A stretch of DNA of 27,809 bases, taken from positions 1-27,809 of the forward strand of contig CAZKGC010000001.1 in assembly GCA_964552335.1 (NCBI GenBank). Direction: 5' to 3'. This document shows, piece by piece, positions 487 to 27,780 of this stretch; within the stretch, counting starts at the first letter, position 1; the number at the start of each line of letters is the position of its first letter. This DNA comes from Candidatus Hadarchaeota archaeon. GTDB lineage: Archaea > Hadarchaeota > Hadarchaeia > Hadarchaeales > Hadarchaeaceae. The translations under genes were made by a program, and so were the position numbers. The notes below the pieces were generated by a model. The model did no database searches, was not told where the DNA came from, and was given only the letters and a program-made list of their open reading frames with translations.

Positions 487-3400
487 CTACCCTCCTGAAG
501 ATACGATCCTGAATGTCCAAATCGAGGATGCGTTCTCGTTGCCGGCTACATCCTTGTCCGTGACTTTCCAGTAATAGTTTTCAGCGGGCAGCTCGGTCGT
601 CGGGGTATAAGTGTTTTCCATCAGCCAGATGTCGATGTCCGGGGAGCCGAACGCTATGTCGCTGTCCACGATCAGATGGTAGTTATCTGCGCCTGGGCTG
701 AGCGACCACTCAAACGTCGGGGTGTTGTCACCCGTCTCCGTCCCGTTCTCCGGGGCGTATAGCACTGGCGCCTCCGGAGGAACCGTGTCGACGGTGAGCG
801 TCCGGATATCGGAGGAGTTCTCGTCCGGGCCCACGACCGCCGCTACCTTCCAATAGTAATCGCCGTCAAGAAGAGCGTTCTCCTCTTCTATGGTGTACGA
901 AGTGACAGATGGGGCGAGGAATACATCTAATGTCGGAGATGACAGGTCCGGGTTAGTGCCGAGCAGCAGGCGATAGTTGTCCCCGTTGCCCCCTGCCCAC
1001 CTCAGAGTCGGCGTGTTGTCGTTCGTGAAAACCCCGTTTTCCGGAGAGCTCAGCGCGGGCGCCTGAGGAGGTGCTCTGATGGTTAGTGCGAATGTGTTCG
1101 ACCACTCACCAGCGTTTCCAGCCACATCTTTAGCTCTCACGTGCCAGTAGTACGTACCGTTCCTTTCAAATATGCGCGCGTATGAATTGTCAGTGCGGCT
1201 CGTGTCCACATCCACGTATGGGGTGGCAAAACTGTTCTCGTTATCGATCTGGATGTCGTATGTCGCTCCCTGCTCAGGTTCAGTCCACTGGAATGTTGCA
1301 TCCAGCGTCGAGAGCACGGTGCCGTCCTGCGGCCCAGAGAGCAGGGGCTGGGTTGGAGCCTGCGTGTCCACCGTGAACGTGGATGGGTTGGACCAGCCGA
1401 GCAGATTGTTCATGCTGTCGTATGCCGCGACACGCCAGTAGTATTCGCCGTCTTGTAGTGTCACGGTCGCGGTGTACGTCGTGCTGGTTATGTTGTCTTC
1501 ATGGATCAATGGTGAGGAGAAGCTTGAGTCGTCGTCCACCAACAATTCGTACCTGCTGGCACCGATCGTGTCCCAACTGAGGTCCGGGGTGTTGTCGTTC
1601 GTGAAACCCCCGTTTTCTGGAGAAATCAGATACGGCGCATGGTTGATCTCTATTATCTTCACCGTACTGTTTGAACTCGTGAAAGCCACTTGCAGATAAT
1701 TGATGTCTTGGATGTTACCTCCGAAAATACGCACGCCAATCGGGACGGCACGCCCAGCCATCTCAGCCGACACGCCTTTGATAAGCCATGCTGTCCTAAA
1801 GTTGCCGCTCCCATCAAGGATAATGAGCAACGTTTCTTGGATATCCGAGCCATAGTATGGCGAGTTGAACCCATCGTATTCTGATATTTTGCCCGTGTCG
1901 TCCACCCTCAAGACAGCGTAACCGTCCATGAACAAGTTTCCATTATCGGTCCGGAGATAGACAATCATATTCTGCGTGTCCAGAACCACGGCTGCCCTGT
2001 TTTCGCCAAAATTGAACACGTAGTTTACGCCCTCCGAGCTCGGCTGTAGCGAAGAAGGTGTCTTAATTCTTTCCGCATTCAACAGGATGTTTACTGGCTG
2101 CTGCGTGGAATAGTAGTCGTATGCTTGATAAAATTCATCGAGCGAAAATATCACGTAATCTATTCTGACGCCGTAGTTATCTCGGTATGTTTGGACGATC
2201 CACCTGAACTCGTTTTCACCCACTATAGGTAACCACTGGACATCGATTCGTCTCCCATTAATTTGGAACGATTTCCGGGATACATCTACACCATAAATAA
2301 GTGCACTGCTGTCCTCAACGTAATAGATGTAGTCTGGGGGGCGTGGGACAAAAGACGGATTATTTTCCCATGTCCCTTCTTCTGCCCTGATCTCAGCACC
2401 ATCGCACACGGTCGTCCGCCGTGCAGCGCCCGTGAGGAGGTGCCCGAACGACCACTGGATGGAGACCACTGAATTCTCCGACGTATTCTCTTGGAGCCAA
2501 GCGAATGCTTCCATGAATCCTTTATCCAATCCACTGACACCATGCCATTCCGTGGGTGGGCCAGTTTGGTAAGCGTTGGTGTATGCATTGGAAATAAACG
2601 GCGCGGCGACGATACCTGCCACAAGCAAAAGTGCGATGGGGTTCTGGAGGTGCTTCAGATGTTCCCCATAGGGTTCTAAAGAGAGTCGCTTGACAAGGGA
2701 CACCAACGTTGCTGCGCCGACGCCAGCTAGTGCCGGTAAAAATGACCACCACAGTCGCTCGAATCGCGCCTGCCCCTTCCCCGGCAACACCATCGCTACT
2801 AGGACGACCAGCCATGCAAAAGTTAAAATTTCCCATCGCTTCCTAGACCAACAGAACTTGAGGAATGCTAAGATAACCAGAGCGAGGATAAACGCCGTCA
2901 GAATAACAGCTGGAAAATTAGAGCCGTAAAATTTACCTAAGGTTTCACCCCAAGATGTTGGCGATTGCATCTCACTAGCATAACTGCTGAATGAAACTCC
3001 CGCACCTCCTCCTCCAATCCCAAGATATCCTGCGTAAGTCCCAAAGATGCTAACCCAGATTTCCGGGCCTTGCCCACCTAAGGCCCACAGCACGAGGGTT
3101 ATCACCACTACCATTCCAACCGTACCGGCTAGCACATCAATATGCCCGCGGATGGCCGAGAAAAATGCGCCAAGCAAGTCTGATGTTTTGCGTGAAAACT
3201 TCCCCAAGAATCCCACTAACAAAACGAATAATAACCCCAATACCAAGATGGCGATAATATAGTGCCAGCCGCCCCACGCCAGCCCGAAGAGCCCGTACAC
3301 CATCCCGGCCAAGAGCGCGAACTTTGGAATCGAGTTCCTAGAAGCCTTGAAAAGTTTTATAGTGAGATACATCGCCCATGCCCCGAGTATCAACTGAATA

Positions 3401-3873
3401 GGCTCCCTGTCGAACGCTCCAACCTTGTTCCAATAAATCGTCGACACCATGGTGGCGGCAAAGAACGCGGCGGCTACCCCCCCCACGTCGCCTCCAAGCT
3501 CCCTACCAATCAGAAAAATCGGGATGAGCGAGAGGGCAAAAATAAATGGGGCCCAGTACTTGACAACATCCATCAGGGTAACGCTTGGGTTTAAGGCGCT
3601 GACCCCACGATAAATCATCACGGCCAGGAGAGGTTGGACCTGCTCACCGAGTGATATGCCCAAACCGTATGGCGCGTGAGAAAGTGGGTTGTTTTCCGCC
3701 AGAGCATTTTCTCTATTTATCTCAAAAGCGGTATCGTATACCCAGCCACTATCGGAGGTGGTCAAAGTGTCGTACTTCTGCCCGGGGATCAACAGCACCG
3801 ATGTCGTAAACGCCATCAACGCAAGCATGTAGCCGACAATCAGCCATCGGCGATAGTTCAAATGGTCACCCAA
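487..3873 (-). CDS. aglB: STT3/AglB-family oligosaccharyltransferase-like membrane protein with four C-terminal Ig/FN3-like repeats
   Basis: Multi-TM N-terminal half with STT3-type motifs: LTTSDSGW (first catalytic Asp), GAFDRE (DxE), YASEMQ (TIxE/SVSE-like), GQARF, AFAWLQENT..SVV, and QWSFGH..AARRTTVCDG at the WWDYG position. The start could be TTG 3873 or TTG 3861. Confidence 0.85.
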   Translation of the reverse strand: MGDHLNYRRWLIVGYMLALMAFTTSVLLIPGQKYDTLTTSDSGWVYDTAFEINRENALAENNPLSHAPYGLGISLGEQVQPLLAVMIYRGVSALNPSVTLMDVVKYWAPFIFALSLIPIFLIGRELGGDVGGVAAAFFAATMVSTIYWNKVGAFDREPIQLILGAWAMYLTIKLFKASRNSIPKFALLAGMVYGLFGLAWGGWHYIIAILVLGLLFVLLVGFLGKFSRKTSDLLGAFFSAIRGHIDVLAGTVGMVVVITLVLWALGGQGPEIWVSIFGTYAGYLGIGGGGAGVSFSSYASEMQSPTSWGETLGKFYGSNFPAVILTAFILALVILAFLKFCWSRKRWEILTFAWLVVLVAMVLPGKGQARFERLWWSFLPALAGVGAATLVSLVKRLSLEPYGEHLKHLQNPIALLLVAGIVAAPFISNAYTNAYQTGPPTEWHGVSGLDKGFMEAFAWLQENTSENSVVSIQWSFGHLLTGAARRTTVCDGAEIRAEEGTWENNPSFVPRPPDYIYYVEDSSALIYGVDVSRKSFQINGRRIDVQWLPIVGENEFRWIVQTYRDNYGVRIDYVIFSLDEFYQAYDYYSTQQPVNILLNAERIKTPSSLQPSSEGVNYVFNFGENRAAVVLDTQNMIVYLRTDNGNLFMDGYAVLRVDDTGKISEYDGFNSPYYGSDIQETLLIILDGSGNFRTAWLIKGVSAEMAGRAVPIGVRIFGGNIQDINYLQVAFTSSNSTVKIIEINHAPYLISPENGGFTNDNTPDLSWDTIGASRYELLVDDDSSFSSPLIHEDNITSTTYTATVTLQDGEYYWRVAAYDSMNNLLGWSNPSTFTVDTQAPTQPLLSGPQDGTVLSTLDATFQWTEPEQGATYDIQIDNENSFATPYVDVDTSRTDNSYARIFERNGTYYWHVRAKDVAGNAGEWSNTFALTIRAPPQAPALSSPENGVFTNDNTPTLRWAGGNGDNYRLLLGTNPDLSSPTLDVFLAPSVTSYTIEEENALLDGDYYWKVAAVVGPDENSSDIRTLTVDTVPPEAPVLYAPENGTETGDNTPTFEWSLSPGADNYHLIVDSDIAFGSPDIDIWLMENTYTPTTELPAENYYWKVTDKDVAGNENASSIWTFRIVSSGG
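490..1638 (-). repeat. Four tandem ~96-aa Ig/FN3-like repeats (P.L.SP.NG....DNTP.x.W ... Y.W.V.A.D..GN...S....T..T)
   Basis: Repeat starts near 1638, 1359, 1074 and 783. Repeats 1 and 3 share 33/35 identical nt (1589-1623 vs 1013-1047), 576 nt apart. Confidence 0.85.
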
Positions 3874-4803: not shown

Positions 4804-7206
4804 TCACTCGAACAATTCGGGCACCGCGACCTGCTCAACTTTTGTCGGCTCGTCGGAATCCTTGTCGCGGGAAAACCTGTACAAGTAGCCGCTGACGGCG
4901 CTCTCCAGGCGCTCCTCGTGGGTTATTAATAAGATCTGCCGCACAACCTCGGGGAGACGGTCTCTCAATATTTTCGCCAGTTCTTGGATACCTTCTGCGT
5001 CCAAGTTGTGGGTTGGCTCATCGAAGACTATCCACCTCAGGTTGGGTGCGAGGACAATTGAGAAAGCGATACGGAGCGCGAGGCAGGCGTCGGTCCGCTC
5101 GCCGCCGCTCGCTATTCCCTCGACCGGGACCCATTCGCCAGCACGGTCGCGAAGCTTCAACACGTAGTCGCCACCGCGTTCTCCTCCCTCAACTGCCAGC
5201 TGAACTCCAATGAAATCTCCATAGGGGTAGATGCTTTCCCACAAGTCATTCATGACCTCGTTGACCCCATCGATGAACATCCGGCGCATAGAGATCTGAG
5301 TTCGCGTGAGCGCAGTATGGATGGCGGTCAGCGCCTGAGCAGCATCCCGCAGGTGCGTGACCTCCGCTTCGCAGCGCAAAATCAGCGCGAGCTTCTCCCG
5401 TATGCTCTCCACGAATTTTTTCTTTTCGGCAAACAGCTGCTCCTTACCCGACAGTTCCGCGCGAAGGCGTTCCTGCGTGCCGACGAGCTCCTCCAATCGT
5501 TCACGAAATTCCTCCGCCTCTGTCTCGTCATAAGTGCGCCTCAGTTGTTCCACAGTCTGCTTGATCCGATCGCTTTCCACAAGTTTCTGCCTGTACTCGA
5601 TACCCCGCCTATCTACGTCCATTCGCAGTTGAAGAAGTTGTTTTGAGTTTGACAATTTATCGTAAAGTTCATCAACTTCCTTTCGGGCACACTCGTTTTC
5701 CGACCTTAACTTTTCGCTCTCGTCTCGCGCTTTCGGAATTTCCAGCTCCACTTCCCCTAGCCGTTTGGAGAGATCCGAGCGCTCCTCTTCAAGCTTAGGG
5801 ATGTCTCCAACCTCCTTCGCCAGCAGTATGCACTTCCGCTGCAACTCAAGCTTCTGGCGCAGGTCATCGCTGAGCCCCTTCAAGCGTAACTCAAGTTCAT
5901 TTGCACGCTTGTTGAAATCTTCGAGTTGTCCCTGGCGCTGGTGTAGAAGCTCCTGTTTTCTGGGCTCATCGAGGGGGCTCTCGCAGACGGGACACGTAGC
6001 CCCCGCCCCCGAGAGTTCGTCCATCGACCCCTTTAAGTCCTGAATCTTGGCGCGGGAAGCGGCAAGCTCGTCACCTACTTCGCGGAACTCTGTTTGAGAT
6101 CTTTCAATCACTTCCGCCAGTTTCTCCGGTTCCAATCCCTCCAGCTCCTCGCCAAGTTTTCGCTTTCGGGAAAGTTCGGCGGTTATCTTGTCCAGCTCAT
6201 CCCGAAGCATCTTTTTTTGAGTTTCCAACCCTTGCAGTCTCGAGAGGGTGATGGTAAGGCTTGAATTGAGTTGATTTGCCAAGGAAACCTTCTCGCTGTA
6301 AGCTCGATCCAACTCACTCGCCTGCTTTTGGATTTCCTCGACTCCGACGTCCGCGGCGGCTCCCAGCCTTTCCCTGAATTCATCGAGCTGTTGTTTCAGC
6401 GCCCCTATCGCACCACTGAGCTCACGATATGATTGCTCCAGCTGCACGAGTTTCTGCTCAATTTCGCGGAACTGTTGGACTTGGTTGCGGGTTGACTCGA
6501 GCTCTGGCTGTAGTTGCTGGAGTCTCACCGAAATCTCCTGTTTAGACGATTCAAGATCCCTCAACTCCTGCTCATGAATCGGCAGCATGGCGATTGACGA
6601 GTCTTGCTTAAGTTGATTCGCCGTTGCCTCGCGCTCCTGCGCACGATCCTTCACGCGACCCGACAACGCGACGATGCTCTTGCGCGCCTTTTCAAGCTTG
6701 TTTATGCCGAGAAGCTCGTCGATGCTTTCCATCCTTCTCCCTTTTGGGAGCATCAGAAAGTAATCGAGGCGGTTTTGTTCCGAATAAATAGCCCGCTCGA
6801 ACAAATCATAGTCAAGCTCCAGCAACGATTGGACGAGTTCGTTCACATGTCCGGAACTTGGGCTTTCAATAAGTTCCCCGGTTGCTTTTCTCAATTCGGA
6901 TAAAGACGTCCCGCTTCCCCGCTCAACGACTCGTTTGACGATATACTCGTTTCCATCGGGTGCCACGAAATTAACCTCCACCTCTGCCCGATCAAGAGGT
7001 CTAGGCCTGCTAGTGATCAAATCCTCTAACCTGATGCGGCGGGATTGCACCGCGGGCAGAGTTCCGAACAGCGCGTAAGTGATGGCATCCAGCACAGCGG
7101 ACTTGCCCGCTCCCATCATTCCTACCAGAACATTTGTGCCGTCGCCGAAGCGGAGCTCCGTGTCGCGGTGGGACTTCCAATTTTTCAGTTTAACGCGCGT
7201 TATCAC
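4804..7206 (-). CDS. rad50: DNA double-strand-break repair ATPase Rad50
   Basis: Walker A GMMGAGKS, Q-loop YSEQ, long coiled coil, central zinc hook CPVC, signature ASGGE, Walker B VFDEPT, H-loop LITH. Overlaps the mre11 stop. Confidence 0.95.
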   Translation of the reverse strand: MITRVKLKNWKSHRDTELRFGDGTNVLVGMMGAGKSAVLDAITYALFGTLPAVQSRRIRLEDLITSRPRPLDRAEVEVNFVAPDGNEYIVKRVVERGSGTSLSELRKATGELIESPSSGHVNELVQSLLELDYDLFERAIYSEQNRLDYFLMLPKGRRMESIDELLGINKLEKARKSIVALSGRVKDRAQEREATANQLKQDSSIAMLPIHEQELRDLESSKQEISVRLQQLQPELESTRNQVQQFREIEQKLVQLEQSYRELSGAIGALKQQLDEFRERLGAAADVGVEEIQKQASELDRAYSEKVSLANQLNSSLTITLSRLQGLETQKKMLRDELDKITAELSRKRKLGEELEGLEPEKLAEVIERSQTEFREVGDELAASRAKIQDLKGSMDELSGAGATCPVCESPLDEPRKQELLHQRQGQLEDFNKRANELELRLKGLSDDLRQKLELQRKCILLAKEVGDIPKLEEERSDLSKRLGEVELEIPKARDESEKLRSENECARKEVDELYDKLSNSKQLLQLRMDVDRRGIEYRQKLVESDRIKQTVEQLRRTYDETEAEEFRERLEELVGTQERLRAELSGKEQLFAEKKKFVESIREKLALILRCEAEVTHLRDAAQALTAIHTALTRTQISMRRMFIDGVNEVMNDLWESIYPYGDFIGVQLAVEGGERGGDYVLKLRDRAGEWVPVEGIASGGERTDACLALRIAFSIVLAPNLRWIVFDEPTHNLDAEGIQELAKILRDRLPEVVRQILLITHEERLESAVSGYLYRFSRDKDSDEPTKVEQVAVPELFE

Positions 7207-8491
7207 TTGTTTTCCCCCTTAGTTCAGCTTTCACAAGGTTTTCTACCACCCCAAAAACATTCTGCAGCGCCTCCTCCTCGCGTCCCTCGACCAGCAGGCC
7301 GTAGAGCGCTCGGACATCGAATATCTGGGTGTAGCCGGACTCGCGCAGGTTGCTCTCCAGCAGGGCCATGGCTGTCTCATCTATGGACATCCGCCGCTCC
7401 TTTAGTTCTCGCAAAAGCTGCAATTTCTCTTCCAAACCAGGAGCAACTAAATCTCCTTTGCTCACAACAACTAACGCCATGTCCGCGAACTCTTGGGTGA
7501 TCGCTCGCTCGTCGAACTCGCTGCGCGATGCTTCCTTGGCCAATGTCCCAACCAGCCTCACCCTTATGAGAGGAAGCTTCCCGAGATTTTTCCTCGGTCT
7601 CTTCAAAAGCTCTCTCACCTTGACCCTCACCGCCTCGTTTAGCCGAGGGACGCTCACCCCTTCGAACCTCATCTCCTCGTAGTAGAAATCCCGCGTAGAC
7701 TTGAGTTCGATGAATTCATACCTGAGCCCGTTGCCGAACTCGACCATGTAGAAACCTTTGGGAGTCTCTGCCTCAATTTGAAGCAGTTGCGTGCGCTCAG
7801 TGCCCCCAGGAAAGAGAATCGGTTTACCGTGAACAGTGGACTCGGTGCGGTAGTGGATGTGGCCGCACAAGTAGAGATCAAACCCGCTGGGCAGGTCGGA
7901 AATGTCCAGAGTGGGTAGCTCCTCGCTCGAGTAAATGAACTGCCCGACAGACTGATGCAGGGCCAAGATGTTGAACGCACCATGAACTGGCTTTGGGTTC
8001 CAAGTCGCGAACACATTCCTAGCGTGCTGCTCGGGCACATTGCTCATTCCGTGAATCGCGAGCTTGCCCTGAGGCGTGTCGAAAATCAACGTGTTGTGAT
8101 GCATGTGGATGAGTAGTCCGGCTGCCTCGAGCGCCTCGACCGGGTTAGTCAGTCCACGCGTGCGGCGCTCGTGGTTTCCGTGGAGGGCAACCACCGGAGT
8201 CCCTAGGAACGCCACGGGTGAAATTTCCTCAAAGTTTTTGTCGATCGTGTCGATGAGTCTGACTTCATTCCGCCCCCGTGCGAGTGGTGTCGAGAGGACG
8301 CGCAGCGCCCGAGCCCACACCTCCTGCCGCGGTATACGTGTGTCGAAGATGTCGCCAAGCAGTACGATGAGCTGTGCTCCGAGGTCGAGGGATTTTTCGA
8401 TTGCCTCCTGAAACTGAACAAAAGAGTCCTGCTCCCGCGGTGTTCCCCACTTTGCTCCAAGGTGCGGGTCGGCGATTACAGCTATCTTCAA
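7190..8491 (-). CDS. mre11: Mre11/SbcD-family nuclease
   Basis: Phosphoesterase motifs ADPHLG, LGDIFD, HGNHE, LHQ and GHIH. Directly upstream of rad50. Confidence 0.93.
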   Translation of the reverse strand: MKIAVIADPHLGAKWGTPREQDSFVQFQEAIEKSLDLGAQLIVLLGDIFDTRIPRQEVWARALRVLSTPLARGRNEVRLIDTIDKNFEEISPVAFLGTPVVALHGNHERRTRGLTNPVEALEAAGLLIHMHHNTLIFDTPQGKLAIHGMSNVPEQHARNVFATWNPKPVHGAFNILALHQSVGQFIYSSEELPTLDISDLPSGFDLYLCGHIHYRTESTVHGKPILFPGGTERTQLLQIEAETPKGFYMVEFGNGLRYEFIELKSTRDFYYEEMRFEGVSVPRLNEAVRVKVRELLKRPRKNLGKLPLIRVRLVGTLAKEASRSEFDERAITQEFADMALVVVSKGDLVAPGLEEKLQLLRELKERRMSIDETAMALLESNLRESGYTQIFDVRALYGLLVEGREEEALQNVFGVVENLVKAELRGKTSDNAR

Positions 8492-8601: not shown

Positions 8602-9825
8602 ATGTCAGAACCCTGGGTCGAGAAGTATCAGCCCCACAAACTTCGTGAAATCGTCGGACAATCAAAAGCCATTCAGGATATTACGACCTGGGCAGAGAGT
8701 TGGAAAAAAGGCAAACCCATCAAGCCGGCAATTCTGCTTTACGGACCAGCTGGAACGGGAAAGAGCGTGGCCGCTGCTGCTCTCGCACGTGAGTTTGGCT
8801 GGGATCTGGTAGAGATGAACGCCAGCGACGAACGCACTATGTCTGAAATCAAGCGCGTGGCCGGGGCCGCGGCGACTGCGGGAACCTTGCTCACCGGAGC
8901 TGGTGGTCGAAGGCTGATAGTGCTCGATGAAGCGGACAACATCCACGGAACCTCTGACCGGGGAGGATACCGCGCCCTCGGGGAGTTGCTTGAAGAGACC
9001 CAGAACCCGCTCGTGCTGATAGCCAACGACCAGTACGCTATACCCTGGGAAATCCGCGCGGCGTGTGAACTGGTCAACTTCAGGCGTTTGATGGAGGAGG
9101 TGACCTTCAAGGAACTGCAGCGGATATGCCGGGCGGAGGGAATCACAGCCGAACCTCTGGCCCTCAAGGTTATTGCCGAGACCGCGAAGGGAGACCTGCG
9201 CTCGGCCATCAATGACCTTCAGACATTCGCGATGGGTAAAAAAAACCTAGCCGTCAAAGATCTGGCCCTCTACCGCCGCGACCGAGAGGTTAATGTATTC
9301 GACTTCCTGAAGCAGCTCCTCTCGGTTGATAATGCCATGGATGCAAGAATCCTGCTCTGGGCACTCGACCTTCCCCCCGACGAAGCGCTTGGATGGATAG
9401 ATGAGAATATCCCGCGAATGGTCGCAGACCCGGCAGATTTAGTTAAAGTGTACGACGCTATTTCGAGGGCAGACATATTTTTGGGCCGCGCGAGGAGAGG
9501 ACAGGCCTATGGGCTCTGGGGGTACGCGAGCGACCTGATGAGTGCCGGGGTGGCCCTATCGAGGGGCAAGCACCTCAAGTGGTCGAAGTTCCAGCCCCCG
9601 AGCCACATACGACGTTTTGCCCGTACGCGAGTTTCCAGAGCGGTGCGGGATGCTGTTGCTCGCAAGGTCGCCCAGCGCTGCCACACTTCTGCTAGAATTG
9701 CGCGGAAGGATGTTCTTCCTTATCTGGGTGTGATCTTCAAACATGACAAAAACGCTGCAGCTGCGATAGCAGGCGAACTCGAACTCACTGATGCCGAATC
9801 AAGTTTTCTGAAAGCGCTGGGGTGA
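8602..9825 (+). CDS. rfcL: Replication factor C large subunit
   Basis: PWVEKYQP box II, Walker A GPAGTGKS, EMNASD, Walker B LDEADNI, GDLRSAINDLQ, and a typical RFC-L C-terminal region. Confidence 0.93.
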   Translation: MSEPWVEKYQPHKLREIVGQSKAIQDITTWAESWKKGKPIKPAILLYGPAGTGKSVAAAALAREFGWDLVEMNASDERTMSEIKRVAGAAATAGTLLTGAGGRRLIVLDEADNIHGTSDRGGYRALGELLEETQNPLVLIANDQYAIPWEIRAACELVNFRRLMEEVTFKELQRICRAEGITAEPLALKVIAETAKGDLRSAINDLQTFAMGKKNLAVKDLALYRRDREVNVFDFLKQLLSVDNAMDARILLWALDLPPDEALGWIDENIPRMVADPADLVKVYDAISRADIFLGRARRGQAYGLWGYASDLMSAGVALSRGKHLKWSKFQPPSHIRRFARTRVSRAVRDAVARKVAQRCHTSARIARKDVLPYLGVIFKHDKNAAAAIAGELELTDAESSFLKALG

Positions 9826-16918: not shown

Positions 16919-18502
16919 TTATAATTGGGCAACATCCTCGACCCAGGCGAACTTCCGCTGGAGAGTCGTGGGATAGATATTCTTCCAATCGTACCCGAGT
17001 TCCTTCGCCCACTTCGCGTAGATGCGGGGGTCGATGTAGGACTTGAGCGATGTCCCGAGGTTGTAGTCGCGTGTGGCCTTTGCGAGCTTCACCTTGATTT
17101 CGGCCGCCTCTATCCTCTTCAGCAGGGACTCTATTCTCTTAGCGCGCATCTTGGATGGGGACTTTTTTCTAACCTCTCTCAGTTGCGCCTTCAGGGCCTT
17201 CAGCCTTTCCTCCTTCTTCCTCAGGGATTCTTCCCAGTTCTTCGGCAGCTTTCGCTTGTGGTTGCAGGTGACCGCCGCCTCAAGGTTCGCCATGGTCGCC
17301 GTGTACTTTTTCTTGAACTCTGGGTCCTCTGGCCGGAGTTCATCTTTCGCCAAGTAGTCCCTCACCACTTTTGACGCGTGGTACGTCCTGAAGACCTTCG
17401 CCGTGAGCCAAGGCATCACCTTCCCCAAAAAAGCATTGACCATCTCAGAGCGCACCCCGGAGAAAACTGGTTCTCTAGGTTTCCCGATAAATGACTTCAG
17501 GTTATTCACGACCTGCGGCGGAGGCTTAATGGTTTTGACCCATCTCACCGAGTCCTTGCCCAAAAAATCGAACTTCACGTTTCCCGACTCGTCTATCCCG
17601 ATGTGCGAGCCCCTGAGGGTGACAGCACCAACCGTGTCGGCCTCGTCCTTGTCCTTCTCGTCTCCAACCCTCAGCTTCAGGGCGTCTATCAGGTACGCGA
17701 CCGTTGCCACTTTCCGCTTGGTGATGTCGTCTGAAGTTAGGTTCATCTCTATGTGGCGCCTTACTTTTTCGACAAGCTGCTCAAGCTCCAAGGCCTCTTT
17801 GAACTTTATGATCTCACGCTCCTGCTTGAAGCGCGCGCTGTCGGCTATCCATACATACTTCATCTTCCCCGTGAGCTTGTCCCGCCATTTTGCAACCCAG
17901 AGGGCTCTTGGGTCGAACTCTCTGCCACCCCACTCGTTTCCATCTGGTGCCTTGGGGGTCGGAGCGTCAGGTGACAGGTTGAGGATGATGTCCCTGTAGC
18001 TGACCCTCGGCTTCCACCTCCCCCTGAGCGGGTGCTCGCCGCGCCCCATGAAGATGCAGGGAGGCTCGACCGTGTAGTTGCCTATCTCCACGCGCTCGCC
18101 GTTGAGGATTACGTATCCGTACTTCTCCCTGTTTGCCTCCCTGAGTTTCTTCCTAGCCTCGGCCAGCCTCTTCTTCTCCTCGCGCGACATGCCTTCCTTT
18201 TTGACCTTTTCCTCCCCGACCCAGCGCTGAATCTCCGAGAAATCGAAGTCCTCTATCTTAGAGGAGGGGTCGACTCCAAGCGCCTTCGAGAAGTCACCCA
18301 CGAAATTTTTTATGAAGACTGGATCCTTCACGTAGTCCGTCCCAAGCTTCTTTACCCAAGCCAAAGCCATCTCTTCTTGTTCTGGCGTCAGAGAGAGCTT
18401 CGTTCCCCTGTATTTTATTGCAAAACCTTGTGGTTCGCAGGATGGGATGAGGACCCCGTTGTGGGCAAGCTGCGTTATCTTTGGTGGTTCCGACATGGGC
18501 AT
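16919..18502 (-). CDS. DNA topoisomerase IB, large eukaryote-like type
   Basis: FMGRGEHPLRG, KYVW, LKLRVGDEK, FDFLGKDSV, AKVFRTY, CNHKR, a coiled-coil linker and LGTSLKSYIDPR. All five catalytic residues (R, K, R, H, Y) are present. Start is 18502 or 18496. Confidence 0.95.
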   Translation of the reverse strand: MPMSEPPKITQLAHNGVLIPSCEPQGFAIKYRGTKLSLTPEQEEMALAWVKKLGTDYVKDPVFIKNFVGDFSKALGVDPSSKIEDFDFSEIQRWVGEEKVKKEGMSREEKKRLAEARKKLREANREKYGYVILNGERVEIGNYTVEPPCIFMGRGEHPLRGRWKPRVSYRDIILNLSPDAPTPKAPDGNEWGGREFDPRALWVAKWRDKLTGKMKYVWIADSARFKQEREIIKFKEALELEQLVEKVRRHIEMNLTSDDITKRKVATVAYLIDALKLRVGDEKDKDEADTVGAVTLRGSHIGIDESGNVKFDFLGKDSVRWVKTIKPPPQVVNNLKSFIGKPREPVFSGVRSEMVNAFLGKVMPWLTAKVFRTYHASKVVRDYLAKDELRPEDPEFKKKYTATMANLEAAVTCNHKRKLPKNWEESLRKKEERLKALKAQLREVRKKSPSKMRAKRIESLLKRIEAAEIKVKLAKATRDYNLGTSLKSYIDPRIYAKWAKELGYDWKNIYPTTLQRKFAWVEDVAQL

Positions 18503-20279: not shown

Positions 20280-20651
20280 TCATTCCTCGTTCTCCTCCGC
20301 TATTGCCCTACCAGCGTAAAGATCGTGTATGGTCACTCTTATACGGCCGTCGGTTAGAGTTAACTTAAAACTTAGATACTCGCATGCGTAGTTCTCGTTT
20401 AGTTCATTTTCGAAAACGGGGATGCGGGCTTCGCCCATGTTCTGAGCTTGAGACCACACGAGATAAGCGAGGTGCAACATCCGACCGTAACGGGGGACTA
20501 CGCCGGCGTCGAGCTTGACCCCGTAAGCTCTCGCCCCCATCACATGCATGAAGCTAGCGTCAAGATACCCGGAGGCGCGAAGGCTGCCATCAGGGAGCCA
20601 CACGAGCACGAGGGAGTTTTCATCGCTGGGGGGCACATAGATGTTTGCCAA
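20280..20651 (-). CDS. Hypothetical protein, 123 aa
   Basis: Fills the glnA-pilin gap with no competing gene, has protein-like composition and a TTG start. No recognisable motif. Confidence 0.5.
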   Translation of the reverse strand: MANIYVPPSDENSLVLVWLPDGSLRASGYLDASFMHVMGARAYGVKLDAGVVPRYGRMLHLAYLVWSQAQNMGEARIPVFENELNENYACEYLSFKLTLTDGRIRVTIHDLYAGRAIAEENEE

Positions 20652-20766: not shown

Positions 20767-21240
20767 ATGAGAAGAGACTCAACCGGCGTTTCTCCCGTTA
20801 TCGCAACGATATTGCTGATAGCTATAACAGTGATCGCCATTGGTGTAGTGATGGTATTCGTCAGTGGACTTGGCAGACCAACACCTCCTTTGAGTGCGAT
20901 CATCTCGGTGAGAAATGCCACAAGAAACAGCACAAAGCTAACAATAGAGCACACCGGTGGGGACCCGATAAGGGATGCGTTCTGCGGGAAAGCAGTTGAT
21001 AATCATGTCATAACAAGTGATAATTGGATAAACCTTGAAGTAATGATTAACGGTGGATTAGTTACCACTACAGAAGACAAGACAAAGTTTAACAACGTCT
21101 TGATAGACAACAACACGTATGACTTCACAGTCGGAAACATCCTATTGCTCGAGAAGATTACGGCTTTGAATTCCGGCGATGTGATAACGATAATCTACAC
21201 GCCCGCTAGCCAAGAAATCGCAAGAGTGACGGTATCTTAG
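20767..21240 (+). CDS. Archaeal type IV pilin (Pilin_N/DUF1628-type N-terminus)
   Basis: Class III signal peptide MRRDSTG|VSPVIATILLIAITV, GAGGTGA RBS, TTTAAATA box upstream, and the HTGGD motif typical of these pilins. Confidence 0.88.
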   Translation: MRRDSTGVSPVIATILLIAITVIAIGVVMVFVSGLGRPTPPLSAIISVRNATRNSTKLTIEHTGGDPIRDAFCGKAVDNHVITSDNWINLEVMINGGLVTTTEDKTKFNNVLIDNNTYDFTVGNILLLEKITALNSGDVITIIYTPASQEIARVTVS

Positions 21241-21264: not shown

Positions 21265-21375
21265 CGCCGTGGGAAGACCTCTCTCGCCCCAGTCAGTTCC
21301 CTGAGGCGCGGGAGTTGGTCAACTGGCCTAGCAAGGGGCTCTCATCTAACTGAGCACGGCGCTAGTGTATTTTTT
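21265..21375 (+). other. GC-rich structured intergenic element ending in a T-run (terminator/attenuator-like)
   Basis: CGCCGTG 21265-71 / CACGGCG 21355-61, GCCCC 21286-90 / GGGGC 21335-39, and CAGTTCCC 21294-301 / GGGAGTTG 21310-17 (two G.U pairs), followed by TATTTTTT. Confidence 0.4.
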
Positions 21376-21397
21376 AGATACGACAAGATAGTAAAAT

Positions 21398-24274
21398 ATG
21401 GATTTTATGCCCCGCAGAGGTGAAAAATATCCTATTGGAGAAAAAGGCGTCTCCGAAGTCGTGGGCGTTATCTTAATCATAGGGCTGATAGTGGCCGTGT
21501 TTGCCACATTTTACCCGATCTGGAGGCAAACAGAGATACGCAAGCTAGAAGCCGAACACATGAACGCAATCAGAAACAGTTTTTCGGACTTAAAATCGAT
21601 GATTGGAGAGTTGGAGGCTGGCGATTCGAGCAGCATTAACCTAAAGCTCGGCCGCAACACGATCGGATTCGGCCCGGACTCCCAGCAGGCTGGTGCCCTC
21701 TCTGTATCCCCCGCCAACCTGAAAACGATAAGGCTCTACCCAATTGACGACGCATACGTAGTCGAAAACCTGCCGCAAAGCAGGTTCGGGGAAAATACCT
21801 CGCTCTGGGTGGCGAGCAGGAGGGACAATAACAAACGAACATTCCTGAAGTTCTCGCTGGAAAGCATCCCAACAGGCACCATGATCCTGAAAGCCGACCT
21901 CTGGCTCTACTGCGATGGTTATGGGTCCCCCACGAGGGAGGTGACAGATGTCCGGTGCTACTCGGTCGACAATGATGATTGGTTGGAAAGCAATTTGGCC
22001 TGGGAAAATCAACCCCCCATGGAAAATGCCCTCGACAGCCTCTATGTCGGCGGAGCCGGTTGGATTTCCTTGACTGCGAAGGATTTCGCGGCCAAAGAGA
22101 TCATTGGAAATAAAATCGTCAGTCTGGGATTGAGGATGAGACAGGAAAATTACGATAACACCGAGAGGTACATCAACTTCTCCTCTAAGGAAGCTACGGG
22201 CAACAGGCCGTACTTAGAGGTGGTATACGCGGTGGGTCCGGGCAGTTCTCAGTGGCCCGTTCAGAGCGAAACCGTATACGAGGGCGGGACGACGGGAATC
22301 TCTGGGGCACAGCATGACGACGGGGTCTACGAGAACATCTTCGAGAACGCCTACCAGTTGCGGTCGCTGTCCTATGTTTCGGGCGAGAACGTGTACGAGG
22401 GGGGAACTAGCAACTTCTCATACGCACAAGCCGATGATGGGAACTATGAAAACATCTTCGAGAACGCCTACCGGTTGTCTATAGCTTTTGATGCTGTTGG
22501 CTCAGGAAGTAACGGCGGTGGTTCAACAACTATTTCGTGGAGTCATACAACTGGTTCTGGTTCAAACATGATTATGGTAGTGGGAGTCGCTATCAAAACA
22601 ACGAGTGTTAGTGTCAGCAGTATTACCTATGGTAGTCAGAGCTTAACATTTATCAGAAGTGATACGGTCGGCACAAGCGAAAGGACTGAACTATGGTATC
22701 TAGTTGCGCCCATTTCTGGAACAGCCAGGGTCACGGTAAACCTTTCGGGTTCTTCAAAAGCTGTTGGTGGGAGCATGACCTATACTGGAGTTGCTCAGAC
22801 ATCGCCAATTGATGCTAACAACGGAGCCACAGGAACTGGAACTTCAGCTTCAGTAAGTGTTACAGTCAATACCGACCAAAGTTGGTTGGTTGGAGTAGTT
22901 GGGATTCCGTCTTCTAGTACAACTATTACTGATGGGGCTAGTCAGAATTACCGCTGGGACCAGGTAGGCTCTGGTGGTGGCCCAGGCGCAAGAGGTCATG
23001 GGCATGGAAGCGATAACGGACCAGTTGGAACTGGAAGCAGGCCCCTCTCTTGGACTCTCAGCGATTCTTACGATTGGGCGGCTTCAGTAGTAGCAATTAA
23101 ACCAGCCACCTTCTACCGCGAGAACGTCCAGCACAACATCACGGGCATCCCAGCTGCCGACAACTACCAGCTCCAGATCAAGTACTACACGGCCGGAGAC
23201 TCGGAGAACGTCAGCGTCTACCTCTACAATTTTTCCACCTCTGGCTGGGACAACAAAGGCAATATCGGAGGCGGAAGCGCGGCGAGTCCAAATACACCTA
23301 CCTACGACCTCACGGGCACCAACTACATTTCGGGTGGAGCGGTTCAAGTCCGCTACGTTCAGCCAGACAACGACAGAACGCAGACCAGTCTGATGGTGGA
23401 CTATACCCGTATTGCCGCTCCCTTCTACCGCGAGAACGTCCAGCACGACATCACCGGTATTCCAGCCGCCGACAACTACAGACTCCAAATCAAGTACTAT
23501 ACGACTGGCGACTCTGAGGCGGTCAGCGTTTACATCGAGAACTTCATAAGTGGTAACTGGGACAACCTTGGCAACATTCAGGGCGGGAGCGCGGCGAACC
23601 CAAAGCTATTCACCTATAGTCTAACGGGCACGAACTACATCTCAAGCTCTGGCTCACCCTCTGGAGAAAACGTTTACATCCGCTACGTTCAGCCCGACAA
23701 CGACTTCACTCGGACCAGCCTGATGGTGAACTACTGCCGGGCCGAGACTGAAACGATGGTGGAGATCGGGGCTTCAACATACGGCACCGTTAAACTCGAC
23801 GTGACGAACGAGTTCTACCCCAGCCAGACCTACGTTTACGAGGGGGGAGGGATAATCATGATCCAAGATGGGGTTGACCTCATGGCCTCAGAGCCCACGG
23901 TGGTGACGGCATCCGATGCTGGGGGTGGGAGCCTCATCCGAGTGGATGTCAACTTCTCAGTGGTCGAAAATAGGGAGACCTCGACCGCCTCAACCGGCAC
24001 GATGACAATTCACGCTTCATGTAAAAGCTCACGCTATGTTGTGACCCCGGTGGATGTTCCCAACCGTGAGAACGTCGTCGTAACAATTTCATCCATATAC
24101 AACAACGCCTGGAGCAAATATCTGCAAAACCTGTGCGATGATCTAAACACCAAGGGGTACAACGCAAGCTTTGACGGACTGACGCTCACGATTTTAGGAA
24201 AGAACACGGGACCAGGCGTGAAGGACATCTACTACTACGAAAAGCTCAGGGAGATCGAAGTTTTCGCCGCGTAG
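21398..24274 (+). CDS. Large pilin-like surface protein/adhesin: class III signal, split pilin-like body, DNRLRE/CBM96-like domain and nested repeats
   Basis: EKG|VSEVVGVILIIGLIV N-terminus; PIDDAYV...RTFLKFSL..IP....ADLWLY...W.ESNLAWENQP...RPYLEV module; duplicated A and B segments; C-terminal NEFYPSQTYVYEGGGII region. Confidence 0.8.
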   Translation: MDFMPRRGEKYPIGEKGVSEVVGVILIIGLIVAVFATFYPIWRQTEIRKLEAEHMNAIRNSFSDLKSMIGELEAGDSSSINLKLGRNTIGFGPDSQQAGALSVSPANLKTIRLYPIDDAYVVENLPQSRFGENTSLWVASRRDNNKRTFLKFSLESIPTGTMILKADLWLYCDGYGSPTREVTDVRCYSVDNDDWLESNLAWENQPPMENALDSLYVGGAGWISLTAKDFAAKEIIGNKIVSLGLRMRQENYDNTERYINFSSKEATGNRPYLEVVYAVGPGSSQWPVQSETVYEGGTTGISGAQHDDGVYENIFENAYQLRSLSYVSGENVYEGGTSNFSYAQADDGNYENIFENAYRLSIAFDAVGSGSNGGGSTTISWSHTTGSGSNMIMVVGVAIKTTSVSVSSITYGSQSLTFIRSDTVGTSERTELWYLVAPISGTARVTVNLSGSSKAVGGSMTYTGVAQTSPIDANNGATGTGTSASVSVTVNTDQSWLVGVVGIPSSSTTITDGASQNYRWDQVGSGGGPGARGHGHGSDNGPVGTGSRPLSWTLSDSYDWAASVVAIKPATFYRENVQHNITGIPAADNYQLQIKYYTAGDSENVSVYLYNFSTSGWDNKGNIGGGSAASPNTPTYDLTGTNYISGGAVQVRYVQPDNDRTQTSLMVDYTRIAAPFYRENVQHDITGIPAADNYRLQIKYYTTGDSEAVSVYIENFISGNWDNLGNIQGGSAANPKLFTYSLTGTNYISSSGSPSGENVYIRYVQPDNDFTRTSLMVNYCRAETETMVEIGASTYGTVKLDVTNEFYPSQTYVYEGGGIIMIQDGVDLMASEPTVVTASDAGGGSLIRVDVNFSVVENRETSTASTGTMTIHASCKSSRYVVTPVDVPNRENVVVTISSIYNNAWSKYLQNLCDDLNTKGYNASFDGLTLTILGKNTGPGVKDIYYYEKLREIEVFAA
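22268..22477 (+). repeat. Tandem 39-aa-period repeat A1/A2 (E.VYEGGT.....AQ.DDG.YENIFENAY.L)
   Basis: A1 is 22268-22360 and A2 is 22385-22477. They share an identical 22-nt stretch AACATCTTCGAGAACGCCTACC (22334-55 and 22451-72). Confidence 0.9.
23111..23746 (+). repeat. Tandem 104-aa-period repeat B (FYRENVQH.ITGIPAADNY...RYVQPDND.T.TSLMV.Y.R)
   Basis: Copies start at 23111 and 23423. They share an identical 25-nt stretch CTTCTACCGCGAGAACGTCCAGCAC (23110-34 and 23422-46). Confidence 0.9.
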
Positions 24275-24299: not shown

Positions 24300-26075
24300 T
24301 TACGCGAGCACCCAGAGGGAGAAGACCAAATACGCCAGTACCATCATCGCTACAGAGTGTTTTAACCCCGCCCAGACATCGCCCGATCCGAGCTGCCCCG
24401 CGACCAGACCGGCGCAGAAACCCTGAATCAGTGAGGCATGGAACAGGAGACGCTTGACCTCCTCCTGTGGTAAACCGGGTGTTATCGGCATGCCGGGAGC
24501 AGGAGCGGCCCCGCCTGGAAGTATCTGGAGCATGTAGGTGGATATCATGCCGGCCGTGAAGAGAAACATGACAAACGACATGTACACGATCACGACGTAT
24601 GTTGTCATCGTTCCTCGTCTCTCATGTTTCAGGGACCTTGCTGTTGAGGCGTCGAGGGCCAAGATGTCTACAACGTCGCTTATCTCCCCGCTCGCCTCCA
24701 TCGCCTTTTTCATCACTCCAACCGACCTCGATACCATCGCGCTCCTAACCCTATCGTCAAAACTCGACATCGCTTCAGAGGTTGATGCCCCCCATTCCAT
24801 CTCCCCGCTCATCTTCCTCAACTCGGAGCTGAGTGGGCCAAGCTCAGATGCGGATGCCGACTTGATGGCCCGGGCGGGGGTGAGACCTGAAGCTATCGAG
24901 CTGGAGAGGCTGGTGAGAAAATCTGGAAAAGACTCCTCGATCTTCCCTGTTCTCCTCACCTTTATCTCGTAGAGGACAACGAATGGCAGAGTGGAAATAA
25001 GGACGACGAAAAATGCTGTCGATTCACTGAATCGCCCCCAAGAAACTTGGGCCAGCAAGAAGACGATGGCGATGGGAAGGCTCACCAAGAAAATGTGAGA
25101 TGGGGCTGTGCGCAAGGCCTGCAGGAGCTTTTTGAATGCCCTAGAAAATCTGCCTCTCTCAAACGCCTTCGCCAGCTCACTTTTCTCTTTGCCCTTCGGC
25201 TTTCCCTCTTTCTCCTTCGCGCGCTTTACTACGACGGGAAAACCTGAAAACCTTGAGACGAGAACGACGAAAAAGGAGGTGCCGAGGGGAATAAGGAGAT
25301 AGATGAGGAGATAGAGAGGAACAGTGTAAAACGTGCCGATTATCCCAAACAGGATCAACATTATCACCGCCAGCAGGGGGCCTAGCCCGAGTATGATAAC
25401 GTAGAACTCCGCCATGAGACCAAGACCCTCCAGCGATCGTCTCTGCCCGGCGCCGGACTCTGCATAAAACTGTCTGGACTTGCTCTCTAGATATTTCGCC
25501 ACATCGCCTCCGGTGATCATGGTGGAAGCGAGAAGTTCCAAAAAATTCCTGAATTTCTCTGAGGGTGTGGTGCGCGCGACCTCCCTGACCGCCGATATTG
25601 GGTCATGACTGAGGTACTCGACACTCCTGACCACCGCCCTCGCCTCCCTCGCCATCTCCCCCTGAGACTCGTCCTCGCCCATCGACCTGAATATATCCGT
25701 CACTTCTCCTCCGCCTTTGCTGAGCGCGTACATGTAGGACACGGAGTGAGGAAGCATGCTCTCTATCTGCGCCTTCCTCGCGCTCGATATCGCGCCCAAG
25801 TACAGGAGGAATGCACGGTAACTCATGTATCCAAATGCAAGCGCCATGAGGAGTACAACGGCGATGGAGTACATCAGCTCCAGACCGATCCAACTTGAAA
25901 TGAGATATCCCCCTGCTCCAGTGAGAGCCGCTATTATGGCCGAAGAGGATACAGCAATGGAGAGATATCTCCTCGGAGAAATATCCTTCCTCGCCCGCAG
26001 GAGTGCCATCTGAAGGTTCTGGTACCTCTTGCCCTTCAGGAACCTCTCGATGATTTTTGCCACGTCGCTCCCCAA
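24300..26075 (-). CDS. Type IV pilus/T2SS-F family membrane platform protein (two T2SSF domains, FlaJ/TadBC-like)
   Basis: Two cytoplasmic domains (IESMLPHSVSYM..LSKGG; IEESFPDFL..LSSSIASG) each followed by TM helices, and C-terminal GLVAGQL..G....GLKH. Directly after the ATPase. Confidence 0.88.
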   Translation of the reverse strand: MGSDVAKIIERFLKGKRYQNLQMALLRARKDISPRRYLSIAVSSSAIIAALTGAGGYLISSWIGLELMYSIAVVLLMALAFGYMSYRAFLLYLGAISSARKAQIESMLPHSVSYMYALSKGGGEVTDIFRSMGEDESQGEMAREARAVVRSVEYLSHDPISAVREVARTTPSEKFRNFLELLASTMITGGDVAKYLESKSRQFYAESGAGQRRSLEGLGLMAEFYVIILGLGPLLAVIMLILFGIIGTFYTVPLYLLIYLLIPLGTSFFVVLVSRFSGFPVVVKRAKEKEGKPKGKEKSELAKAFERGRFSRAFKKLLQALRTAPSHIFLVSLPIAIVFLLAQVSWGRFSESTAFFVVLISTLPFVVLYEIKVRRTGKIEESFPDFLTSLSSSIASGLTPARAIKSASASELGPLSSELRKMSGEMEWGASTSEAMSSFDDRVRSAMVSRSVGVMKKAMEASGEISDVVDILALDASTARSLKHERRGTMTTYVVIVYMSFVMFLFTAGMISTYMLQILPGGAAPAPGMPITPGLPQEEVKRLLFHASLIQGFCAGLVAGQLGSGDVWAGLKHSVAMMVLAYLVFSLWVLA

Positions 26076-26076
26076 A

Positions 26077-27780
26077 TCAGCCGATCATCTTGAGTGCCTT
26101 GTCGGGGTTGTAGTAGTACATGTTGATCAAGGTGGCAACATCCTTAGGGGAAGTGATGTTGTTCTCGACCATGTACCTGAGGATTTTCTCCCTGTTCTCC
26201 ATCTCCCTGCTGACCTTGTCCCCGCCCCAGCCCCTCTCGCTCATTATCTCCACGAGTACATGTGACTCGCCTGTTTTCCTGAAGGAGTCCGATGCCGGAT
26301 CCCATTCAAACGGCCTGTTTATCGTCGTCTCCCCCTTAGCTGAATCCAAGCCAACGATTTCGATGACGCTCTCGTTCCTCCTTACCCTCTCTTTTCCCAC
26401 ATAAGTGAGAATTTGCATACACACCACGTCGAGGGAGATCAGCATCGAATGGGGCAGATTTACCGGTTCTCCCTCGAGCCGGTTGATGGCCTCCTGAAGG
26501 CTCCCGGCGTGCATCGTCGAGTAAACAGCATGGCCAGTGCTCATGGCTTGGAACATCGTCAGGGCCTCAACCCCCCTCACCTCACCGACTATCATGCACT
26601 CGGGCCTTTGCCTCAGCGCTTGGCGCAAGAGATCGTACATGTCGATCTTCGCCTCCCCTGGGGCCTCACGTGTGAGGCTTGGAAGCCAGTTTTCCTGATA
26701 GAGCGATAACTCCCTCGTGTCCTCGATTGTAACTATCTTTGCACTCGGAGGCACGAAGAAAGCTAGAGCATTCAGGGCTGAGGTCTTACCCGAAGCCGTG
26801 CCGCCTATTACCAGCATACTCTTGCGGTTCTCGATAGCCAGCCAGAGGTACGCCAGCATCTCTAGGCTGAAGGTGTTATATCTGATGAGGTCGACCGGCG
26901 TGAAGGCCTTGCCCAAAAATTTTCGGATGGAGAACGAACTCCCCTTGGTCGTCACCTCGCTGCCGAGCGTGAGCTGGGCCCTAGAGCCATCTGGAAGCGT
27001 GGCCTCGATGAGCGGCTTTGCGAGCGATATGTGCTTTCCACACCTCTCGGCGAGCCTGATGATGAACTGATCCAGCTCCTCCTTTAAGAGCTTGACATCG
27101 GTTTTGATGTTGTAATACTTTCTGTGGTAGAGAAAGATTGGGATATCAGCCCCATCGCAGGAGATATCCTCTATAGACCCATCCTTGAGCAATGCGTCTA
27201 TTTTGTAGTAGCCAATGCTGTCCCTTTTGAGATAGTACAACATTCGATGAATGGCGATTTGATCGGTTATCCCGTGCTCCTTTAAAATATCCGAAAATTT
27301 CTCCGTCAGAACCTCATCTTTTTTCTCTGTTACTTTCTCGTATGGCAACCTCACCCTCAGCTCGTCTTGGACTTTTTTCAGCACATCATTCTCGGCTGGG
27401 GTCAATTCGGGTTCAACTAGGTGGTACAGGTATTCGTTCGTCTCGGCGTTAACGAGGATCACAGCGAAGGTGAAGGGCTTTTCTATCCAACCTCTCTCCA
27501 CCTCTTTATATCCCTCCATCCCGCTGAAAGAGAGAAGAGGACCGAATTTCTTTGAATCGTATTCTCCTATTTTCACCTCTTCCTCGATGCCCGTTATCTC
27601 CCCTTCGATGGTGGGCTCTATCTTCGCGAACTCGCGGCGGAACTCCTCTAACTCCTCGTCGGCTTCAAACTCCTCTATTTTGGGCTTCTCCAATTTTTTC
27701 CGAAGCTCCGCTAACGCACTTTCGTCACCCAGCATACTTGGAAGAGCTTCTTTTTTGCGGGATTTCTCTCCTTTTTTCAT
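26077..27780 (-). CDS. Type II/IV secretion system / pilus assembly ATPase (FlaI/VirB11/PilB-like)
   Basis: IEDISCDG, Walker A GGTASGKT, Asp box IEDTREL, ALRQRP, Walker B IVGEVRG, His box STMHA. Confidence 0.93.
   Translation of the reverse strand: MKKGEKSRKKEALPSMLGDESALAELRKKLEKPKIEEFEADEELEEFRREFAKIEPTIEGEITGIEEEVKIGEYDSKKFGPLLSFSGMEGYKEVERGWIEKPFTFAVILVNAETNEYLYHLVEPELTPAENDVLKKVQDELRVRLPYEKVTEKKDEVLTEKFSDILKEHGITDQIAIHRMLYYLKRDSIGYYKIDALLKDGSIEDISCDGADIPIFLYHRKYYNIKTDVKLLKEELDQFIIRLAERCGKHISLAKPLIEATLPDGSRAQLTLGSEVTTKGSSFSIRKFLGKAFTPVDLIRYNTFSLEMLAYLWLAIENRKSMLVIGGTASGKTSALNALAFFVPPSAKIVTIEDTRELSLYQENWLPSLTREAPGEAKIDMYDLLRQALRQRPECMIVGEVRGVEALTMFQAMSTGHAVYSTMHAGSLQEAINRLEGEPVNLPHSMLISLDVVCMQILTYVGKERVRRNESVIEIVGLDSAKGETTINRPFEWDPASDSFRKTGESHVLVEIMSERGWGGDKVSREMENREKILRYMVENNITSPKDVATLINMYYYNPDKALKMIG

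Follow-up and report, generated by a model that had tools for sequence, protein, structure and literature searches.

A pilin-like protein with a predicted domain-within-domain insert in a type IV pilus locus of a Hadarchaeota archaeon

How can a single polypeptide accommodate two pairs of repeats, two short copies on one side of a central domain and two long copies on the other? This question is raised by a gene of a Candidatus Hadarchaeota archaeon (assembly GCA_964552335.1, contig CAZKGC010000001.1, positions 1 to 27,809 of the forward strand; this whole stretch of 27,809 nucleotides (nt) is hereafter called the window). The gene, P0001, encodes a pilin-like protein of 958 amino acids (aa) in which the short segments A1 and A2 precede a domain called X and the longer segments B and B' follow it. 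Based on the analysis described below, we propose, with a probability of about 0.72, that the product is a nested minor pilin-like subunit of an archaeal type IV pilus, that is, an adhesin with X at its far end.

The order of the modules along the open reading frame (ORF) at 21398-24274 is pilin-like N part, CBM96, A1, A2, X, B, B' and pilin-like C part, and the boundaries agree to within a few codons with the order and coordinates given in a preliminary description of the locus. The modules are listed here with their supporting evidence, which includes hidden Markov model (HMM) matches with their expectation values (E) and the predicted local distance difference test (pLDDT) of the structural models.

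21398..24274, + strand: whole gene P0001, pilin-like protein with nested insert, 958 aa (ORF and domain map)
21398..21721, + strand: N part, aa 1-108, with a class III (prepilin-type) signal, the long alpha-1 helix and the first DUF7289 beta strands
21728..22222, + strand: CBM96/DNRLRE carbohydrate-binding-type module, aa 111-275, first unit in the pilin loop (PF24517, NF033679, Foldseek)
22253..22363, + strand: A1, N-terminal strands of the predicted outer AB domain, aa 286-322 (HMM "A" E 2.9e-23; pLDDT 75-88)
22370..22480, + strand: A2, N-terminal strands of the predicted inner AB domain, aa 325-361 (HMM "A" E 1.3e-22; pLDDT 88-96)
22481..23101, + strand: X, 207-aa beta-sandwich cargo, aa 362-568 (pLDDT 93-98; PHROG 553; BFVD structural matches)
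23102..23416, + strand: B, C-terminal two-thirds of the predicted inner AB domain, aa 569-673 (HMM "B" E 2.4e-53)
23417..23746, + strand: B', C-terminal two-thirds of the predicted outer AB domain, aa 674-783 (HMM "B" E 1.1e-49; 70% identity to B)
23747..24274, + strand: C part with stop codon, aa 784-958, forming the second half of the DUF7289 globular domain (DUF7289 profile; pLDDT 81-96)

The A and B copies are genuine repeats. In a self-comparison of the protein, A1 and A2 were 65-70% identical (BLAST E 9.8e-12) and B and B' were 70% identical (BLAST E 7e-45). Both pairs were also recognized at the DNA level, far beyond chance (22259-22360 vs. 22376-22477, 71% identity; 23109-23232 vs. 23421-23544, 82% identity). 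The contigs of two independent sediment-metagenome runs tiled the gene with no alternative joints, and the repeats are therefore not an assembly artefact; misassembly as their origin was ruled out on this ground.

The AB domain and its insertion loop

The preliminary description had proposed that A and B are the two parts of one domain. The chimeras A2+B and A1+B' of the window protein served as the two rows of a profile for an exhaustive HMMER search of 1.84 billion representative proteins. This search replaced an earlier word-index profile search with A+B chimeras, which had returned one 90-aa fragment and missed known relatives. The exhaustive search produced 91 hits. An uninterrupted A+B stretch of ~140 aa was present in P0064 (four copies), P0065 (two copies), P0066, P0080, P0098, P0119 and P0124, with the contiguous domains of P0064, P0065, P0066 and P0080 scoring 150-165 bits, and 15 contiguous A+B pairs were counted across the proteins scanned. 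Judged from sequence, A (~36 aa) and B (~105 aa) are one contiguous domain of ~140 aa, hereafter the AB domain, as had been proposed. Neither A nor B had a Pfam match above the curated cut-offs, the AB domain has no NCBIfam family, and its best result in a PDB sequence search had an E of only 0.4.

The A/B junction of the contiguous proteins corresponded to a hairpin loop of 5-8 residues between the motifs YENIYEEN and YRxxVxH. Both interruptions of the window protein sit exactly in this loop. The single-layer relatives P0002, P0003, P0004, P0007, P0032 and P0045 contained A, then 150-590 aa of unrelated sequence and then B, while P0009 was a plain A-X-B protein. Six inserts of such relatives were scanned and no Pfam family was matched. 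The insert of the syntenic ortholog P0003, located at the same site, was a distant X relative (hhalign probability 77%, E 2e-5). Different inserts at one and the same junction, which the preliminary description had suggested looking for among orthologs, were thus found in positional orthologs. These data showed that the A/B hairpin loop is a variable insertion port. The port was shared by dozens of proteins with different anchors, such as P0045, which is named "PGF-pre-PGF domain-containing protein" in its source.

Some relatives displayed additional splits. The orthologs P0003 (locus L001) and P0006 (locus L003) carried a further split host domain, D, around the AB stack, and D was also present in the homologs P0002, P0004, P0007, P0008, P0010 and P0011. 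Its N half has ~90 aa ("WxQTDWSGG...") and its C half ~70 aa ("TRTGxTENxYDGTWSxW...RYIQYRVEL"). D encloses the AB stack, and therefore those orthologs would have four levels inside DUF7289. The window protein lacks D, a domain without a Pfam family. In P0010, the B half of a t2-type AB domain (subtypes are defined in the next section) was apparently split by ~300 aa near HMM position 50 (aa 1008-1057 and 1362-1416), which hints at a second insertion site within B.

Residues 2-204 of X, the cargo of the window protein, matched the phage protein family PHROG 553, annotated as "minor tail protein", with an E of 6.4e-9. The comparison of its structure with BFVD revealed many phage proteins or domains of ~220 aa, with a template modelling (TM) score of 0.7-0.8, a root-mean-square deviation of 2.3-3.5 Å and up to 30% identity; several of these matches were annotated as mycobacteriophage minor tail proteins. 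This showed that X is related to phage minor-tail (host-recognition) domains. A tblastn search of X against phage genomes gave no match, X had no Pfam match above the curated cut-offs, and no PDB sequence match had an E below 0.4.

X had ~35 homologs at 45-68% identity. In ~35 archaeal proteins besides the window protein (P0017-P0052; also P0016, P0041 and P0020), X was likewise an insert, located within another split domain, E (signature "LYAHxE...YYRxW" / "...QTDYLEIDYY"), and domain E within a t3 AB-like pair. Pfam scans of D and E chimeras revealed nothing above the curated cut-offs. We have also noticed a weak similarity within X itself, between aa 473-503 (22811-22903) and aa 538-567 (23006-23098), with 39% identity over 31 aa (E 0.002) and a 22-nt echo in the DNA (22820-22841 and 23015-23036). 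It could be the remnant of an internal duplication, or chance.

Order of the layers and structure of the stack

We have distinguished three AB subtypes. Subtype t1 is that of the window protein, t2 has "PLVDGSxRxG" in A, and t3 is a distant relative (hhalign E 0.001, probability 21%) that aligned collinearly and was split at the same junction. Contiguous t2 domains occurred in P0112, P0116, P0125 and P0128, and single split t2 pairs in P0011-P0015. A typed HMM scan covered 144 proteins. Wherever A copies were detectable, their number equalled that of the B copies and the types matched.

For the pairing we examined proteins in which two A copies, adjacent to each other, and two likewise adjacent B copies were of mixed subtype. 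All 15 of these doubles had the mirror order Ax Ay ... By Bx (crossed order, 0), in the combinations t2>t1, t1>t3 and t2>t3. The outer B copies clustered with the B of contiguous t2 domains, and the outer A copies bore the t2 signature. When the segments were matched as brackets on a stack, 110 split pairs were matched in type vs. 16 mismatched, the latter mostly where an A copy had escaped detection. Short linkers of 1-10 aa, about equal in length on the two sides, separated adjacent A copies and adjacent B copies; in the window protein both had 3 aa. This supported, at the sequence level, a topology of a domain within a domain within a domain, and the mirrored order favored the earlier idea that one A+B domain was inserted into itself with X in the inner copy.

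Seven proteins had same-type doubles, t1 in t1 in the case of the window protein and t3 in t3 in the other six. The identity at third codon positions was 0.51 for A1/A2 and 0.59 for B/B', and this similar synonymous-site divergence of the two repeat pairs is consistent with one duplication event. The relative identities to homologs (the A1/A2 ratio vs. the B'/B ratio) showed no correlation that would point to the partner of A1, because B' is more diverged from everything.

Deeper stacks may also exist. P0033 and P0105 had three consecutive B copies after X. Three A-like segments were seen by eye upstream of X in P0033, with one of them passing the HMM threshold, which suggests a triple nest A-A-A-X-B-B-B.

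We have used AlphaFold2 to model the stack. A first run with the full-length protein was based on a naive MAFFT alignment of whole homologs. In this model B and B' were folded (pLDDT 60-94) and A1 and A2 were disordered (pLDDT 22-35), because the MAFFT rows were misaligned: the single A of the homologs had been placed on A2 and their B on B', with unrelated sequence under A1 and B. This run was not used for judging A-B pairing. We have then prepared a curated collinear alignment of 24 rows, containing double-layer homologs from outer A to outer B, the A-X-B of P0009 and X domains alone. Whole X-only homologs wrecked the A columns of the stack alignment and exact substrings of the homologs were used instead.

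With the curated alignment, aa 281-790 were modelled with a mean pLDDT of 90.8 and a predicted TM score of 0.64, all five models having a pLDDT of 87.6-90.8. A1 and A2 now appeared as beta strands plus a short helix (pLDDT 75-96), in line with the earlier expectation that the A copies are not free-standing. The model contained two unusually long, continuous strands, one leading from the end of A1 to the start of A2 (aa 317-334) and the other from the end of B to the start of B' (aa 663-678). Such strands would be expected if a two-stranded neck joined the outer domain to the inner one. A Foldseek search of the model against the PDB returned multi-jelly-roll and CBM-type (carbohydrate-binding module) proteins, namely reelin repeats, Cry protoxin domains and CBM4.

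The top viral structural match to the stack model was the unnamed 817-aa BFVD protein A0A1B1IQI5 (558 columns, E 6e-17, TMq 0.42, 19% identity), with an alignment exceeding what X alone explains. The nested architecture may extend, in part, to this viral protein.

The pilin-like frame, its locus and the alternatives

The whole protein matched DUF7289 (PF23960) with 43.3 bits against a Pfam cut-off of 27. When the two ends were scanned separately, each scored just above this cut-off: profile positions 2-80 corresponded to aa 17-93 (27.5 bits) and positions 109-201 to aa 810-912 (28.6 bits). The protein therefore contains one DUF7289 domain interrupted by ~715 residues, which bears out the claim that the N and C parts belong to a single split pilin-like domain. 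The related claim that the stack occupies a loop of the pilin held insofar as the two halves flank the whole insert, and had to be modified insofar as the CBM96 module shares this loop in series, outside the stack. The CBM96 assignment is based on PF24517 (95.2 bits vs. cut-off 26, E 4.8e-27) and the NCBIfam model NF033679 (CBM96/DNRLRE, 79 bits vs. cut-off 34, E 4e-22). The closest folds by Foldseek were 8wab, a chondroitin-sulfate-binding CBM (TM 0.61), and 7vbo (TM 0.50).

The N-terminus, read directly from the sequence, has a charged leader followed by ...GEKG/VSEVVGVILIIGLIVAVFATF and then ~22 hydrophobic residues, as in class III signals. The motif ...GEKG/VSEVVG precedes the hydrophobic stretch, and the corresponding "ERG/VS" motif was kept in 13 homologs. 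In the full-length AlphaFold2 model, a helix at aa 13-70 was followed by a confident beta-rich C part (pLDDT 81-96).

The pilin-like gene is flanked by a small Pilin_N pilin gene and, on the opposite strand, by genes of the pilus assembly machinery:

20767..21240, + strand: small archaeal type IV pilin, 157 aa, directly upstream (Pilin_N PF07790 E 1e-15)
24300..26075, - strand: PilC/TadC-like platform protein, 591 aa (T2SSF PF00482 E 4.5e-27, two stretches)
26077..27780, - strand: PilB3-like assembly ATPase, 567 aa (T2SSE E 2e-34, plus PilB3_N and PilB3_C)

The loci of the orthologs P0003 and P0006 are similarly organized. The small pilin and PilC-like genes adjoin the gene in both of them, and the PilB3-like ATPase is found in L003 and in the window. 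A TATA-like sequence, TATTTTTTAGATA, was seen by eye at 21368-21380, 18-30 nt upstream of the ATG at 21398, which suggests that the pilin-like gene is transcribed from a promoter of its own into an mRNA with a very short leader or none.

Several observations weigh against a nested pilus subunit. Pilin_N (19.2-22.1 bits, Pfam cut-off 25.2) and TIGR02537 (14.2 bits, NCBIfam cut-off 20) matched at the correct place and below their cut-offs, and no prepilin peptidase gene was found within the window. The CBM96 module lies in series with the stack in the pilin loop, so the design is not purely nested. The two layers of the window protein are 70% identical paralogs, so subtype matching is inapplicable to this protein itself, and its A1-B' and A2-B contacts are proposed from analogy and parsimony. 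Finally, the ordering of A1 and A2 depends on the alignment.

These observations bear on three alternatives. It is rather unlikely that the nested architecture is real and the protein is no pilus subunit, the class III signal serving for export and anchoring only; a membrane-anchored or secreted surface protein, for instance one for polysaccharide binding or cell-cell recognition, would then be encoded here. The sub-threshold scores just given agree with this, as do the lack of a known function for DUF7289 and the presence of AB/X stacks in non-pilin proteins such as P0045. Against it stand the conservation of "ERG/VS" with the hydrophobic helix, the long alpha-1 helix of the model, and the small pilin and PilC-like neighbors in both ortholog loci, together with the ATPase in L003 and the window.

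It is distinctly unlikely that the pairing is crossed (domain-swapped), with A1 completing B and A2 completing B' to give two interlocked AB domains. At ~70% identity between the copies either pairing is sterically conceivable, and the continuous linking strands of the aa 281-790 model are as compatible with crossed as with nested pairing. Yet none of the 15 mixed-subtype doubles was crossed, and the crossed order takes two independent partial duplications, whereas nesting takes one cassette insertion at a site that accepts cassettes. The equal connecting segments, with 3-aa gaps on both sides, also fit a two-stranded neck between outer and inner domain. A beads-on-a-string surface protein, with the A copies as short linker repeats and the B copies as independent tandem domains having no A-B partnership, would fit the disordered A1 and A2 and the folded B and B' of the first model, but is very improbable given that contiguous A+B domains exist, that detectable A copies equal the B copies in number and type and that A1 and A2 form confident strands once the alignment is collinear.

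We thus favor the nested minor pilin-like subunit, for which we propose the following arrangement. The outer AB domain (A1...B'), of jelly-roll type, would hold the complete inner AB domain (A2...B) in its A/B hairpin loop, and the inner domain would hold the 207-aa X in the same loop. As every layer is an insertion, the chain would run outward in A1 and then A2, traverse X and return by way of B and B', making each neck a two-stranded connection. X would lie farthest from the pilin anchor, and CBM96 would remain near the filament. Anchoring in the pilus of the adjacent PilB3/PilC machinery would be provided by the N-terminal hydrophobic helix, and a position at the tip is probable because of the protein's bulk. 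CBM96 and X may bind polysaccharide or cell-surface ligands in sediment. Pilus incorporation, the tip position and binding or adhesion are what we infer by analogy with modular pilins, GspK, ComZ and RrgA, and the words "telescoping" and "adhesin", both used in the preliminary description, are to be taken in this inferred sense. The two layers most likely originated by a single cargo swap, in which the insert of an A/B domain was replaced by a paralogous A-X-B cassette.

Known systems and biological meaning

Nested-insertion adhesins and insert-bearing pilins are already known in bacteria. In the literature on DUF7289 and on nested or matryoshka-type domain insertion, no description of the present architecture was found. 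New are the archaeal DUF7289 context, the recursive self-insertion of one unnamed host domain and a cargo port shared by dozens of proteins.

RrgA of the sortase pili of Streptococcus pneumoniae (PMC5333627) is likewise a pilus adhesin built by nested insertion with the binding domain distal. Its layers are unrelated folds, stabilized by isopeptide bonds and attached by sortase, whereas in the present protein copies of one family form the layers and a helix resembling those of archaeal type IV pilins serves as anchor. The general Pfam scan revealed no sortase- or isopeptide-type family, no scan being aimed at LPXTG or isopeptide motifs. The relation to RrgA is one of analogy and not of membership, the anchor here being an N-terminal class III signal.

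Pilins with bulky additions are a second point of comparison. Thermus ComZ has a beta-solenoid between pilin beta strands, and GspK of the type II secretion system has an inserted alpha-domain (PMC6561018, PMC8179133). ComZ, GspK and the "modular pilins" PilB and PilC of S. sanguinis likewise consist of a pilin module carrying a bulky functional module, a design predicted to fit no position other than the tip. All of these are bacterial proteins, with one insertion each or a module grafted onto the C-terminus. The window protein is archaeal and contains DUF7289 with a loop that holds CBM96 plus a predicted three-level stack, and its orthologs go one level deeper.

The founding member of CBM96 binds alginate (PMC9971899). 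Residues 111-275 of the window protein are a clear member of CBM96/DNRLRE by sequence and fold, which here lies within a pilin loop instead of being joined to an enzyme. X resembles the phage minor tail proteins of PHROG 553 over its full length and is here cellular, embedded in AB or E host domains. Insertion into a loop of a homologous domain is also found in myosin X, with a split pleckstrin homology (PH) domain that contains an inserted PH domain (PH1N-PH2-PH1C). That protein is eukaryotic and intracellular, with a single level and no cargo variation.

The window encodes other proteins. At 16919-18502 (- strand), within an archaeal chromosomal context, a DNA topoisomerase IB of the eukaryotic type is encoded (Topoisom_I_N, Topoisom_I and Topo_C_assoc, E 1e-58 to 1e-65). 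An AglB/STT3-type oligosaccharyltransferase of 1128 aa with a C-terminal Ig-like (Big_13) region is encoded at 487-3873 (- strand), and Rad50 (4804-7206), an Mre11-like phosphoesterase (7190-8491) and an RFC-like AAA+ protein (8602-9825) were also identified. A 123-aa ORF at 20280-20651 (- strand), between glnA and the small pilin gene, has no Pfam family. The tRNA and Rfam scans of the window found nothing.

It is possible, and we put it forward tentatively, that the A/B hairpin is a dedicated and recursively usable docking port, through which archaea shuffle cargo, including copies of the scaffold and phage-tail-type domains, among pilins, PGF-CTERM surface proteins and perhaps viruses. If true, such a port would provide combinatorial adhesin diversity and double-tethered stalks of up to four layers, resistant to proteolysis and force. 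Domain insertion is usually a one-off event, while the AB host appears to be reused recursively (t1 in t1, t3 in t3, t1 in t2 and t3 in t1), with as many as three successive B copies, in dozens of proteins of uncultured archaea. The AB domain with its subtypes, X, D and E had no significant Pfam match, and ordinary annotation misses these families because every one of them is split.

The stack would thus offer a natural system for studying the evolution of insertion-tolerant loops and the folding of nested proteins, as well as a design template for displaying binding domains on a rigid, doubly tethered stalk. For the pili of sediment archaea whose relatives include Bathyarchaeia and Hadarchaeota, CBM96 and the phage-tail-like domain may provide the first functional leads, namely polysaccharide or cell-surface binding.

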